A DNA stretch of 64,000 nt from Eledone cirrhosa (taxonomy: Eukaryota): assembly GCA_964016885.1 (NCBI GenBank), contig OZ024755.1, positions 22,196,001-22,260,000 on the forward strand, in the 5' to 3' direction. The notes below the pieces were generated by a model that was not told the DNA's origin, made no database searches, and saw only the letters and a program-made list of their open reading frames with translations. Made by a program: the position numbers and the translations under genes. Of the stretch, positions 9,713 to 31,957 are shown one piece after another (the first letter of the stretch is position 1; each line of letters starts with the position of its first letter).

Positions 9713-11237
9713 TATACACTCACACTGGTATTTAATGATATGGAGTTAAATAACTACAATTTGTTAGTCAATATACCTTCTGATCAATGAACCTTCTAAT
9801 CATAAAACAATGAAGTGATTAAGGACAAAACATTGCTTTTCATCCTTTCGAGGTTGATAAACAAAGTACCAGTATAGTACTGGGGTTGATTCTTCCTCTA
9901 TATCTCTTTCTCATTTCCATTCTCTCACACTCTCTCCTTCTCTGGAAGAAATCTGCTGTATTCAGACTTAGAGAGGAGATGGGCTCTGCCAGGTTTTAAA
10001 ATACCCAAGAAATGCTGTATGCCACCAAAGAGCCTCTACAACTCCACCAGGAGTAACAGGACTATACCATATCTTATATGTCTGAATGGTCCCGTAACTC
10101 CTAATAGAGTCATGAAGGTGCTGGCTGTATTGACATATGGCATTTCTGGGGGAGCCCATCCCTCCCCAGGCCAGAGTACAGCAGATTTCTTCCAGAGAAA
10201 GACAGAAAGTGAGAAAGAGGAAATGAGAAAGAAATATTGAGGAAGAACTGAGCGCAGTACTTGTACTGTTTTTTCAACCTTGAAAGGATAAAAGGCAAAG
10301 TTGACCTCGGCAGGATTCTATCTGACGTTCTAAAGACTCTGCCAATTCATCGCCTATAGATATTGTAAACGGGAACTGTCAAACATCTCAGTTGAGAAAC
10401 AAGTAAAGTTATTGTTGTAAATAAATTAAAAAAATACTAATTTGACGGAAATAAAAATAATTATAGGAGATTTGAAATATAAGAAGAATCAATTGAGTTA
10501 AAATTCCTAATAAACCAAACAACATTTTGTAGCGTCTTTAATTGGGTCTCTATTGTTGTTGGTTCAGGAAATGACCAAAGCAGGGGATAATTGTGTTATC
10601 CTAAGGAGCTAGAGGAAACCAAAGCAAAACATAAGTTGAAAGAAGATGCTAGTGCTTAACTTGAAAATACAAACAAGCAAATGTAAGAATTGTTATAGAA
10701 TTTCAAGAGACATTACACAGTTACACATACTTGTACACATAGCATGGCACTCACAGATTCTTGAGTGAGTGCTGATGTAGCAAATTGTAGAATAAAGAAA
10801 AAGGAAACCATAAGCACATATATATTGAGGTATCTGATTTTGAGGTATCTAGTCTTTAATGCAAAGAAATACCAATGATAATCAGCAGACTACTGATGAC
10901 GGACAGTCCCGTTTCTCGGTCTATTTTCATTCATATGTATCACATTCGCAACAGCGCAGCACACCATTTTTTAATTCCCATAAAATGTTTTCCCCTCGCT
11001 GTGGTTCGTATTTTTTCTATCACCTTACTGCTATCCTCTTTCTCTCTCCTCCTTCTCTCTCCTTGTACCTCTTGCTTTCTTTCACCCCCTCTGCTGGTCA
11101 TCTCATTTCTACAGCTGAGTAAACTGGAGCAATGTGAAATAAAGTGTCTTGCTCAAGGACACATCACTCGGTCTGAGAATTGAATTCACAACCTTTCGAT
11201 TGCAAGGTCAATGCTCTAACCACTAAGCCATGTGCCT

Positions 11238-13493: not shown

Positions 13494-14061
13494 CCATGGA
13501 AGATGGACGTTAAACAATGATGATAATGATATATATATATGTATATATAAGTTTATCCCAGGTTCAATCGGGGGTAACCACAGTAACTAAGGTACTCAAT
13601 ACATAGCAGAGTATAAATATTTAATATAGAAAAGGCTTCTACAGGACTACACACATATATATATACATACATATATATATATATGTATGTATATATGCGA
13701 ACACACACACACATATAAGAACACACACACACATATATCAGAACACACACACATACACACATATATGTATATATATAAGCCAGATCAGTTCCTGTATGAG
13801 CAAGGCATGGTCAGCCGACCAGACACTGCCCACAACAGGACAACCCGTCTAACCCATGCTAGCGTGGAAGAACGGACGTAAAACGGTGATGATGATGATG
13901 ATGATGTATATTCTTTTTATCCCAATAACTTAATTTAGTTATTGTATTGCCCTAGCCGGAGGTATATGGTCTGTAATGCGAAGAAATACCTATGATGGCT
14001 AGTAGACCACTGATGATGGATAGTCCTGGCTTCTATTTCTAATTCTTCATTTTATTATATA

Positions 14062-14275
14062 CTAGCAGATGTACCCGGCGTTGCTCGGGAAATGAATGAC
14101 AGCCTGTTTGTCCGTATAAAGTGAGCCAAAGGTTGAGCAAAGAATTGAAATGTAATTGTAAAAAAAGGTTTAACAAAATGGGTGTACAGTGACATGATTG
14201 AGTGAAATAAACGGCAACATAAAAACAATTCATGGGGTAGCTTGAGTTAATTGACGTGAATGATTTCAGCTCGGC
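14062..14275 (-). mobile_element. Helitron 3' end
   Basis: Reverse complement CCCGAGCAACGCCGGGTACATCTGCTAG|T, nearly identical to the 57972-58000 terminus. Confidence 0.65.
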
Positions 14276-14293
14276 CAAAAGTAGAAACCATTA

Positions 14294-14470
14294 TCGGTAG
14301 AAGGTCGGACGCCTTGCTTTGACGCATAGAGTTACGGCCCTTTACAGTCTGAGTTCAAATCCCGCCGAGGTTAACTTTGCCTTTCATCCTTGCGGGGATC
14401 GATAAAATAAAGTACCAGTAATGCACTGGGGTAATTGCTGGCCTTGTGCCAAAAGTAGAAACAATTATTA
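14294..14470 (+). mobile_element. SINE family A
   Basis: B box GAGTTCAAATCC, core and tail as in family A. Confidence 0.85.
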
Positions 14471-14833: not shown

Positions 14834-15495
14834 CAGGGGTTCTCAAACTTTTGGGGCCACCGCCCCATCCCCCTCACAGCCACGTAGTACCCTCAGCGCC
14901 TCCCAACCCTATTTCCAGAGAGACCTGTCTACACGCAAATTGTAAATAATATATAATAAATAAAATCGTTTATCTATAATAAATAATATAATATATACTA
15001 CATAAAATAAATATTATATATTTTTTATTTTGCTATATTTATATAATATGTATCATTTGATATTTAATATACTGTTATATCATGTCTACCACACCCTAGT
15101 ACCCTCTTAGGACCAATGCCCCTGGACCTTCTCAACGCCCTCTGGACCTTCTCAACGCCCCCTGGACCTTCTCAACGTCCCCTGGACCTTCTCAAAGCCC
15201 CCTGGACCTTCTCAACGCCCCCTGGACCATCTCAACGCCCCCTGGACCTTCTCAACGCCCCCTGGACCATCTCAACGCCCCCTGGACCATCTCAACGCCC
15301 CCTGGACCTTCTCAACGCCCCCTGGACCTTCTCAACGCTCCCTGGACCTTCTCAACGCCCCCTGGACCATCTCAACGCCCCCTGGACCATCTCAACGCTC
15401 CCTGGACCTTCTCAACGTCCCCTGGACCTTCTCAACGTCCCCTGGACCTTCTCAACGCCCCCCGGGGGCGGTAGCGCCGAATTTGAGAACCTCTG
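14834..15495. mobile_element. hAT-like non-autonomous element (MITE) carrying an internal minisatellite
   Basis: TIRs CAGGGGTTCTCAAA / TTTGAGAACCTCTG (Charlie-like termini); 8-bp TSD not clear. Confidence 0.7.
15118..15462. repeat. 20-bp minisatellite, ~17 copies
   Basis: Unit CCTGGACCTTCTCAACGCCC. Confidence 0.95.
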
Positions 15496-15820
15496 ATGTA
15501 TGTTTCAGAGACACACACACACTTTAGATATTAGCTTCCCTCTAGTTAAGAACAAAGCATGCAAGTTATTTAGATTTCACAGTACAATGTTTACAAATAA
15601 ACACAATTTAGAATTTAAAAAAAAAATTATATTTAAAAAACAAACAAACAAAAAATAAGAAAAGTAGGCGCAGTCAGGTGGAGTTTCCATCTAAGAAATC
15701 AAAACCGGTAAGAAACATCCCATCCCCAACCATCTTCAAGTCCTCTTATTCTCCTATTTCCCATCAGAATTTTTTCCAAAGTTCCTTTTTCTTTTTGTTT
15801 GGTTTTTAAACATTTCCTGT

Positions 15821-16440
15821 GACCCCTGTACAGTGTGACCGATTGACGCACTGTTGTCCGATGACCCCTGTACAGTGTGACCGATTGACGCACTGTTGTC
15901 CGATGACCCCTGTACAGTGTGACCGATTGACGCACTGTTGTCCGATGACCCCTGTATAGTGTGACCGATTGACGCACTGTTGTCCGATGACCCCTGTACA
16001 GTGTGACCGATTGACGCACTGTTGTCCGATGACCCCTGTACAGTGTGACCGATTGACGCACTGTTGTCCGATGACCGCTGTACAGTGTAACCGATTGACG
16101 CACTGTTGTCCGATGATCCCTGTACAGTGTGACCGATTGACGCACTGTTGTCCGATGATCCCTGTACAGTGTGACCGATTGACGCACTGTTGTCCGATGA
16201 CCCCTGTACAGTGTGACCGATTGACGCACTGTTGTCCGATGATCCCTGTACAGTGTGACCGATTGACGCACTGTTGTCCGATGACCCCTGTACAGTGTGA
16301 CCGATTGACGCACTGTTGTCCGATGACCCCTGTACAGTGTGACCGATTGACGCACTGTTGTCCGATGACCCTTGTACAGTGTGACCGATTGACGCACTGT
16401 TGTCCGATGACCCCTGTACAGTGTGACCGATTGACGCACT
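15821..16440. repeat. 42-bp minisatellite, ~15 copies
   Basis: Unit GACCCCTGTACAGTGTGACCGATTGACGCACTGTTGTCCGAT. Confidence 0.95.
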
Positions 16441-16495
16441 TACTGTTAAATTAATGGGATTTAGGAGGTATTTTTCTCTCGCTTTGGTTATATGC

Positions 16496-29407: not shown

Positions 29408-31957
29408 AACCAGTAAGACCCCGACGGCTGAGCTCAAGCCGTTTCAGAGAATTAGCCGTCGAAACGGCTTGAGCTCAGCCGTCGGGGTCTTACTGGTTCC
29501 TATTACCCACTCTACTACCCACTCTACTACCCTAAGTATTGAGTACTTTGGTGCGTTATGGTCCACCTGGTTCCTTACCACATTTCCTTCGTTATATATA
29601 TATATATATATACACATCTAACTTGGAGACATGTAAACATGCCAGAAAATACGAATTTTCCTGTAAATTGAAAAATATAATAAACATCTTTAACCCTTTA
29701 GCATTTAAACTGGCCATACCCGGCCAGAATTCTCTCACCTCTTTCTGTTCAAACTGGTTGTAACTGGCTGCTCACACCTACATTAAAGTATCGTTCTCAA
29801 AATAAATAATAGATTTGATACTATGTGAGACAATTATATAAGATAGAGCCTTTTCTTTGAAAATACAACAGTAAATATAGAATAATTGTTTCTACTTTTG
29901 ATTCTACGGGATTTGAACTCAGAATGGCAAGGGCTGTAACTCTATGCGTCAAAGCATGGCATCCGACCCTCTATCGATACTGCCAATTCACCGCCCTATT
30001 TCAGAATAATACTAAAAGCAAATTGGTATATATACCATCTATTTCTTCTTTGGTAGATTGTGTCAACTGTAGGATGTTTTGATTTATGTATGTAGTATAT
30101 TTCAATTTAAGCTTTGTCTGTTTGGCATTAGGAAAGGAATTCAGCCATAGAAACCATGCTCCCAGTACATGCTGTAAAGTGGTGTGTGTTAGGAAGGACA
30201 TGCAGCCATCAAAACCATACATATCCCAGTTTCTGTGGTGTTAAGCAACTGAGAGTACAAGACTCCCCATCCCCACTGGACAGGACTCCAGTCCATCACA
30301 GGGTTAAACTCCTGACTATTACTGGTACCTATTTTCAGCTGAGTATACTGGAGCAGTGTGAAATGAAATGTTTCGCTTAAGAACACAACACACAACCTAA
30401 TCCAGGAATTGAACCTATGACATTATGATCAGAAGTTCAACACCCTTACCACTTGGTCATGTGCCTCCATTAACCCTTTAGTATTTGCATTACTCTATAT
30501 TTATCATTATATTTTCATGGTAAAGGCTTTACTTCACATAATTACCTCATATAATATTGAATCTATGAGATTTTCATATTATTTATTTTAAGAACAAACA
30601 TCAGTATGAGTGGCCAGTTATGGCTGGTTTGAGTATATATATATATGAGTATATATATATATATATATATCATCATCATCATCATCATCAACGTTTAACG
30701 TCCGTGTTCCACGCTTGCATGGGTTTGGACGGGGGTAGTCCCACTTGAGGCAAGAGTGATTGTCTTGCTCGCATAGGACTGTCTGGCAGGTTTTCTACAG
30801 TTGGATGCCCTTCCTAACACCAACCACATTTACAGTGTGGGTCTGGGAGGTTTTTACCGTGTTGCCTACACGGCCACATTACAGCGTGGACTGTGTGTTT
30901 TTTTGTCGTGACACCTACACGATCTCATTTGTTTCGGCCTCGATGGCGCGGCACCAACATAACTTTACATATATATATATATGAGTATATATATATATAT
31001 ATATATATATGAGTATATATATATATATATATGTATGAGTATATATATATATATATGTAATATATGTATGAGTATATATATATATATATATATATGAGAA
31101 TAAACGTGCTGTGGGGTTGCTAATGGGTTACATATGAATAAAGTTAGTCCTTCATCAGTGATCTTCCAACCGAAATACCAATGATGGTTGGAAGATCACT
31201 GATGAAGGACTAACTTTATATATATATATATGTATGAGTATATATATATATGAGTATATATATATGTATGTATATATTTATATATACACACACGCACATA
31301 TATCTACACACATAGATGGATACATAAGCACACACCATTATCATCTTCATCATTATTATTTTACATCCAGAGAGAGAGGGGTGGGGGGCGAAAAGAGAGA
31401 GACATGCCCATTAAAAACAAAAATAATATGTTAGAAGTGAGGTGGGTGTACATTCAAGATATAACTTTAATCATGGAAAGAAAACTGAAATAAAACCAAA
31501 TACTAAAGCACACAAAAAAAGAAATAATAATTTCTTAACAGATATAATTTCAGTTGATTAACTTTCTACAACTATATATTTCTTTCGGCAGATCTTCTCT
31601 TTTATATAAGACTTTTTTTTCTTTTCCCCAAAATGAAAAATTCATTCATTATCAAATAATTTGTTTCCAAAATAGCATCATTGAAAATATAAAAACAAAA
31701 TAGCTTGTATTTATATATATATATATTTAAAAAAAGGAAAAGAATGACTTCACTTGTAGAACAATGTGTTGTTCTAAAAGTGAAGTCATTCTTTTCCTTT
31801 TTTTAAATATACCTAACTGAACCAGAGATTTCACACATTTTCCAATATATATATATACATATATATATATATATTTATTAAAATAACAGATATATATTTG
31901 ATATATATTTATCCTATCGAGCCCTCTTTGGATTTTAGTCTTCAAATTTATTATTAT

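Follow-up and report, generated by a model that had tools for sequence, protein, structure and literature searches.

The element studied here lies in a 64,000-nucleotide stretch of the Eledone cirrhosa genome (assembly GCA_964016885.1, contig OZ024755.1, positions 22,196,001 to 22,260,000; hereafter the window), in which a short structured motif is found at three loci. Its second copy had previously been described, from the letters alone, as a kink-turn/pseudoknot motif bounded by positions 13952 and 14035. The parts of this copy and the two other loci are given below.

10834..10962 (motif 10834-10911), plus strand: copy 1, 5'-truncated, without the Px 5' strand, Py and the stem II 5' strand
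13917..13922, plus strand: extra helix Px, 5' strand, pairing with 14018-14023 (6 bp, five Watson-Crick and one G.U)
13923..13944, plus strand: extra hairpin Py, 8 bp with a 6-nt loop (8/8 Watson-Crick, probability at least 0.97)
13947..13950, plus strand: stem II 5' strand, supplied from upstream rather than from behind CUGAUGA (4 bp with 13978-13981)
13952..13957, plus strand: helix P0, 5' strand, formerly P1 (6/6 Watson-Crick)
13958..13960, plus strand: kink-turn, non-bulged strand (3n, G2n, A1n)
13961..13966, plus strand: stem III 5' strand with U16.1 (13965) and H17 (13966); cut predicted between 13966 and 13967
13967..13972, plus strand: stem I 5' strand, formerly the pseudoknot (6/6 Watson-Crick)
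13973..13982, plus strand: linker followed by the stem II 3' strand (13978-13981), with position 11.1 at 13982 (A or T rather than C)
13983..13990, plus strand: G12-A13-A14-A15.1 and the stem III 3' strand; no variant among those listed at 13983-13986
13991..13996, plus strand: kink-turn bulge L1-L3 with G1b, A2b and 3b
13997..14002, plus strand: helix P0, 3' strand; listed variants mostly matched by partner variants
14004..14016, plus strand: stem I 3' strand, then directly C3-U4-G5-A6-U7-G8-A9; core identical in 3/3 window loci
14017..14023, plus strand: variable base (14017) and Px 3' strand (14018-14023)
14024..14057, plus strand: tail of the element, which in the closest subfamily stops at about 14044; the next repeat starts at about 14058
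31099..31219: copy 3, two 5'-truncated copies head to head (minus strand 31171-31099, plus strand 31172-31219) in a (TA)n tract

Core letters, stems and kink-turn

All pairings proposed by the sequence-only reading (P1 13952-57/13997-14002, P2 13961-65/13986-90 and the pseudoknot 13967-72/14004-09) are found exactly at these coordinates, and so are the GA dinucleotides at 13959-60 and 13994-95 and the CTGATGA at 14010-16. As a full description of the motif, a kink-turn plus a pseudoknot falls short, since the hammerhead core had gone unrecognised: the "pseudoknot" corresponds to stem I and "P2" to stem III. Likewise, the supposedly conserved loop is no simple loop, as its last five letters form the 3' strand of P2, its GAAA belongs to the hammerhead core and its GCGA pairs upstream. 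This 17-nt stretch occurs twice in the window (10857 and 13974), each time as an exact match; with three mismatches allowed, 21 of 100 shuffles also reach two occurrences, and the count alone is not significant.

In the RNA of copy 2, GGUAU-A-UGGUCU provides a stem III strand, the cut site and a stem I strand, GAA-AUACC provides G12-A14 and the second stem III strand, and AGACCA-CUGAUGA the second stem I strand followed by C3-A9. CUGAnGA thus stands directly 3' of a stem I strand, stem III is closed by A15.1-U16.1 next to the GAAA, and a UH cut site with H other than G (AUA and AUC in the window) lies between stems III and I. The three core blocks, i.e., the cut-site strand (S), the GAAA block (G) and the CUGAUGA block (C), follow each other in the order S, G, C. 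Two cores of this order with at least six and at least five Watson-Crick pairs are present in the window, compared to none in 300 dinucleotide shuffles. Judged by letters and pairing, the strands of the motif are those of a hammerhead ribozyme core in non-circular order, and cleavage of the element RNA is predicted after A13966. Between copies 1 and 2, one compensatory pair is seen in stem I, which is equalled in 260 of 500 shuffles and hence not significant.

Helix P0 joins the strand 3' of the stem II 5' strand to the strand 5' of the stem I 3' strand, which is the same connectivity as that of the stem I/II interaction helix in type-SGC and type-CSG ribozymes, as described in the available text of Eckert et al. 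2023 (PMC10085705). In copy 1, P0 has other letters and the pairing is kept. The kink-turn of the earlier description is confirmed, as both intact copies (2/2) conform to the standard definition with a 3-nt bulge followed by G.A and A.G. Its L1 position varies freely and its G and A letters carry no variant among those listed, while a G>T change at 13958 (205/317 reads) converts the 3b.3n pair to U.U. According to PMC10085705, the stem I/II brace and stem III have their far ends wide apart in the crystal structure.

Upstream helices and the published Naiad ends

The structure starts at about 13917, and the bounds 13952-14035 had consequently left three helices outside on the upstream side. The minimum-energy fold of 13910-14030 includes Px (pair probability 0.44-0.64), Py, P0 and stem III; being nested, it omits stems I and II, which is inevitable in any pseudoknot-free program. 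Folded alone, 13945-14040 does no better than shuffles (z=0.65), this piece being without the upstream strands and the fold being pseudoknotted. Copy 2 is the only window copy able to fold completely.

Among the variants listed, those in Py at 13932 and 13933 fall into the loop and 13944 G>T, seen in a second organism, breaks the end pair; a subfamily of 132 reads carries Py with two compensatory pairs and one mismatch. In stem II, 13948 T>C (76-80% of depth) replaces U.G by C-G. Next to G12, stem II of copy 2 has 4 bp with A or T at position 11.1, whereas most published Naiad versions have 5-6 bp closed by G-C, and a competing 7-bp register of the copy 2 strand would disrupt Py. Two other foldings were considered and set aside. 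The minus strand folds better (z=-2.5) but has no CUGAnGA core in register, and a stem II made of a local hairpin (3 bp, 14018-14026) has a probability below 0.1, is absent in copy 3 and is displaced by Px.

The arrangement of Px, Py and stem II was first noticed in published ends of Naiads, a clade of Penelope-like elements, and afterwards sought in the window. Of the 54 Naiad consensus sequences in the supplement of PMC8557442, the 3' ends of 26 were inspected by eye; 12 of these had been picked by CTGATGA, making this a core-enriched sample, and most of the others were viewed over about 130-420 letters. In this sample, the split architecture with different letters was seen in 10 of 26 ends from seven lineages (octopus, squid, corals, jellyfish, ostracod and others), namely Obim, Ovul, Esco, Amil, Anas, Aacu, Movir-2, Plae, Dst-4 and Bfor, with the names Plae and Dst-4 deduced from file order. 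Weaker cases are Esco (stem II 4/5), Aacu (stems I and II each with one mismatch) and Bfor (stem I of 2 bp). In the split forms of this part of the supplement, stem II joins the strand before GAAA, by 5-6 bp, to a strand that precedes all other parts, e.g., GACACC/GGUGUC in octopus, GGCUCC/GGAGCC in coral and GACGCC/GGCGUC in the ostracod, and G10.1-C11.1 closes the stem in all except Esco. Where enough upstream sequence is given, Py precedes the stem II strand and a Px strand before Py pairs behind CUGAUGA; both helices are weak or partly visible in Esco and Bfor. By eye, all stem letters differ across the inspected Naiads. Naiad_Obim and Naiad_Ovul share helices, kink-turn and a near-identical Py loop with the window family. 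The junction between brace and stem III is a standard kink-turn in the window family and in both octopus Naiads, and a simple bulge or a long insert in the other Naiads inspected.

Five of the 26 ends (Ppac, Parc, Nbra-3, Hcon or Hpol, Smim) carry hammerheads of plain type CSG in which the stem I/II brace is long, and in 11 of 26 no clear hammerhead was seen. The CSG-type Naiads are well paired and come from nematode and spider, and the available text of PMC10085705 reported only two natural CSG sequences. One of the 11, the Naiad-1_Movir 3' end, appears by eye to carry a twister-like motif in place of a permuted hammerhead.

Could the upstream helices be incidental, and the motif an ordinary type-SGC ribozyme with a one-bp stem II (14017/13982) or a U-GNRA-A mini hairpin (13977-13982)? 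The T/A switches at these three positions do occur at similar frequencies in raw reads (13977 T>A 200/748, 27%; 13982 A>T 188/826, 23%; 14017 T>A 207/689, 30%). However, 14017 is C in 146/689 reads without an A>G change at 13982, in the inspected Naiads an upstream strand, with letters of its own, forms 5-6 bp with the strand preceding GAAA, and shuffling the 44-nt upstream piece 20000 times never reproduced the upstream arrangement. We therefore regard this explanation as very unlikely and retain the predicted split stem II.

Insertion pattern and family variation

In copy 1, the core, P0, kink-turn and stems I and III are intact and the tail is longer. This copy also has a 9-base direct repeat (10826-10834 and 10841-10849). 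Its two units share their last letters with the predicted cut site, which would fit a very small, incomplete tandem copy that stopped at the cleavage point, though slippage might leave the same trace; this is a single case. Copy 3 was located with a profile of two copies (nhmmer, E=3.4e-6), and the tail of its minus arm is 39 nt longer than that of its plus arm. The window copies are truncated insertions, with an insertion into (TA)n being clear at one of three loci (copy 3) and short TA-rich edges only at copies 1 and 2.

For Naiads, the available text of Craig et al. 2021 (PMC8557442) describes 5' truncation, an inverted partner, one-sided tails of 30-40 bp and (TA)n targets. Copy 3, with its two head-to-head truncated arms in (TA)n and 39 nt of additional tail on one arm only, matches this description, and the window family shares all four traits with the clade; 5' truncation, inverted partner and one-sided tail are, however, common to other Penelope-like clades too.

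The repeats adjoining copy 2 are themselves multi-copy (13 and 2 window matches, selves included), and dispersed repeats flank it at 14240-14440 and 13775-13890 (30 and 13 window matches, selves included). The latter two we take to be octopus SINEs, and the immediate neighbours of copy 2 are presumably a SINE and a Helitron. Further downstream, minisatellite arrays at 15117-15462 and 15750-16450 with units of about 20 and 33 bases yield long repetitive open frames. Among the 62 window ORFs of at least 120 aa, no Naiad ORF (N-terminal GIY-YIG endonuclease plus reverse transcriptase) was recognised by eye.

Four public sequencing runs were compared with 13908-14062 at 80% likeness. Matches comprised 926 and 953 contigs in two runs of one sample and 953 raw reads in a reduced-representation run under the same species label, with read depth over this interval giving no copy number. 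Many distinct read starts, together with 93% of reads continuing into unlike sequence, indicate a dispersed family. One contig of a second organism (run X4) spans 13912-14040 with four differences, and hence either the family or the copy 2 insertion itself is common to two organisms. Three short motifs derived from loose read ends gave nothing new in the window.

Many raw reads stop matching at 13910 and 14044 with a loose-end agreement of 0.40 and 0.36, as if a unit of about 135 nt had varied flanks. A short non-autonomous element of the retrozyme kind, mobilised by the enzyme of a Naiad or of another Penelope-like element, is thus a possible carrier, and one compatible with the proposed fold. 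No matching ORF is present in the window, and in the accessible part of a recent preprint animal retrozymes were proposed as non-autonomous Penelope-like sequences (bioRxiv 10.64898/2026.07.22.740005). Against such a carrier, 12 contigs share one upstream sequence (agreement 0.96), strong 5' truncation is normal for Naiads according to the available text of PMC8557442, and a tandem array is absent from the window. We consider it a serious but clearly secondary option compared to a Naiad-type element. The latter also meets counter-evidence, as no ORF ties the family to Naiad, its letters differ from those of Naiad_Obim, and 11 of the 26 inspected Naiad ends had no clear hammerhead.

All variant figures rest on the 40 of 69 variants listed, which are unphased, and mapping favours similar copies. 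In 13959-14026, 18 of 68 positions are variant compared to 0 of 11 core positions (P=0.024), and core plus kink-turn G.A letters are variant at 0 of 15 positions (P=0.005), in both cases among the variants listed. In both contig runs all changes at A and C are covered, as judged from the class totals, with at most five G/T changes per run beyond the list, and in the read run 28 changes fall outside it; the core A and C letters are consequently certified as invariant in the contig runs. The cut-site base 13966 is A or C (335/725 reads C) and never G, the A>G class being fully listed in three deep runs. Position 11.1 is A or T in the family and the usual G10.1-C11.1 pair is absent. For P0, stem I and stem III, nine of 13 listed, unphased variants keep pairing, and the other four break a pair unless the partner lies outside the list; for one of these, the partner is present in copy 1. 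A pair-breaking example is 14008 C>A in stem I, at 15-17% of depth in both contig runs. In the contigs, the T/A switches at 13977 and 13982 make up 44-60% of depth.

The earlier suggestion that the stems diverge under selection on structure can be upheld in part. Most family variation does preserve the stems. That the motif is a mobile repeat family had gone unnoticed; selection therefore operates at the level of the element, and not necessarily at 13952-14035.

Reads pile up at 13910, 13932 and 14044 and not at the predicted cut site, and 141 of 194 reads of the closest subfamily end at 14044. Together with the absence of G10.1-C11.1 and the 4-bp stem II of copy 2, the missing pile-up speaks against a cutting RNA. 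The main rival explanation is accordingly a descendant of a permuted hammerhead that has lost cutting and serves as a structured 3' handle of the RNA for the reverse transcriptase or a host protein. The frequent mismatch variant in stem I would fit this possibility, and so would the poor in vitro cleavage of minimal Penelope-like hammerheads described in the available text of Cervera and de la Pena 2014 (PMC4209133). Yet 11 core letters are without variant among those listed, the cut-site base avoids G, and letters other than G-C at 10.1/11.1 occur in other Penelope-like hammerheads too (rows of File S2). Loss of cutting thus appears unlikely, and the reading of a cutting ribozyme is preferred.

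Alternatively, the motif could be a host non-coding RNA with kink-turn and pseudoknot, e.g., a snoRNA-like RNA without hammerhead function, selected at these loci as the sequence-only reading would have it. The kink-turn indeed resembles a box C/D motif, and the contig of the second organism covers 13912-14040 with few differences. However, the hammerhead core is complete and in register with two stems, each contig run gave more than 900 contigs, one insertion is inverted in the manner of a transposon, and the Naiad homologues in the inspected ends disfavour a host gene. Rfam searches at gathering thresholds gave no match in the window, and no conserved guide precedes CUGA. We consider this explanation extremely improbable. 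A box C/D snoRNA proper was rejected, as the letters preceding CUGA are not the same from copy to copy and take part in internal pairing. The twister ribozyme was rejected as well: only six letters, UAAUGC, resemble it, and P4, its loop and both pseudoknots were not found.

Proposed action, meaning and known systems

At the level of letters and predicted pairing, the core, stems I and III, P0, Py, Px, the kink-turn consensus, the repetitive nature and the insertion pattern are seen directly. Taken together, the motif is probably a hammerhead core in non-circular order at the 3' end of a likely Naiad-type Penelope-like element, with an RNA cut predicted after A13966. Its RNA would present, from 5' to 3', the Px 5' strand, the Py hairpin, the stem II 5' strand, P0, the kink-turn strand and stem III-UH-stem I with the cut site. 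After these, the linker, the stem II 3' strand-GAAA-stem III, the kink-turn bulge, P0, stem I-CUGAUGA and the Px 3' strand would follow. Px and Py may place A9 beside stem II and thereby substitute for the direct backbone link, while P0 could act as a brace between stems I and II, the role such a helix has in type-SGC/CSG ribozymes. The kink-turn would bend the chain such that the far ends of stem III and P0 become joinable, perhaps aided by an L7Ae-family protein; at title and abstract level, the literature search found no natural hammerhead with a kink-turn or L7Ae. Cleavage would release RNA of unit length out of tandem or read-through transcripts, a function that PMC4209133 proposes for other Penelope-like elements. 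Re-ligation into a circle serving as template for reverse transcription is also plausible, since four helices (Px, II, P0 and III) would keep both products joined.

We lean, with some reserve, towards a broader interpretation. In it, the motif represents a hammerhead topology that would be the seventh found in nature and would act as a monomer, with the CUGAUGA block detached from stem II and re-attached via two extra helices. This form would be the standard 3' ribozyme of many Naiads from ctenophores to octopus, with the type-CSG hammerheads of nematode and spider Naiads as its circular-permutation kin, and the kink-turn gained in octopus would make it a candidate protein-assisted ribozyme there. 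Non-circularly permuted RNAs were first reported in 2023, and from environmental sequence only, according to the accessible portions of PMC10085705. If true, such hammerheads would exist in animal chromosomes in many copies, adding a connectivity that the 2023 scheme excludes. It would also resolve the puzzle of Naiads multiplying without the hammerhead of other Penelope-like elements (PMC8557442), for which the available text states a "lack of canonical HHR" and uses the labels "HHR_core" and "HHR_half_core" with the second half on either side. The kink-turn wired to stem III would in that case offer a natural route for a host protein to tune the ribozyme. The reading specifies one exact cut site and five helices.

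In the literature searched (mostly open-access text without figures), no prior report of a permuted hammerhead in Naiads, octopus or cephalopods was found. This includes the accessible parts of the 2026 retrozyme preprint (bioRxiv 10.64898/2026.07.22.740005), a 2026 ribozyme paper, a 2023 ambivirus paper, a 2020 retrozyme paper and a 2019 review; hammerheads "with additional helices" are mentioned, by way of a cited reference, in the available text of PMC13725137. Strict family patterns gave no match in viral or metagenome contigs. Looser architecture patterns gave 99 loci in viral contigs, none of which had stems I and III of at least 4 bp, and at least 119 loci in metagenome contigs, where one of 119 passed, chance-like and in unrelated DNA.

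Among known systems, type-SGC and type-CSG ribozymes, which according to the accessible portions of PMC10085705 cleave in vitro, come closest in connectivity. As described there, type SGC stems from metatranscriptomes and type CSG from metagenomes, with one weak GCS candidate as the only case in genomes of known organisms. Shared with the window motif are the S-G-C block order, a short linker from a stem I to a stem II strand, a helix that connects these stems on their other sides and, often, an extra base after CUGAUGA. In those ribozymes stem II follows directly on CUGAUGA and block C is assumed to be unbreakable, whereas the window motif carries its stem II 5' strand at the 5' end and has Px and Py inserted after A9. 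The strand after CUGAUGA could form only 0-1 bp with the strand before GAAA. The motif is thus not of type SGC as defined, and is predicted from its letters to work like one; its helix order of Px, Py and stem II is not among the six permutations of that scheme. The published search pattern demands CGAAA, which the window family does not have, and compared to the environmental origin of the SGC and CSG examples the window motif is a many-copy animal repeat.

Naiad_Obim, in the part of its consensus inspected, differs from the window family in stem letters, and the window family has no linked ORF. Standard kink-turns, as described in the accessible portions of PMC3651934, share with the motif the three-base bulge, G.A plus A.G, and flanking C and NC helices, with the C helix here being stem III of the hammerhead. 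Finally, the minimal type-I hammerheads in canonical Penelope-like pseudo-LTRs, as presented in the available text of PMC4209133, share with the window family the core, the location near the 3' end, an extra base between positions 9 and 10.1 and many variable copies. Circularly permuted and with a tiny stem III, these hammerheads depend on dimers, whereas stems I and III of the window motif are of full size and its expected fold is a pseudoknotted monomer.
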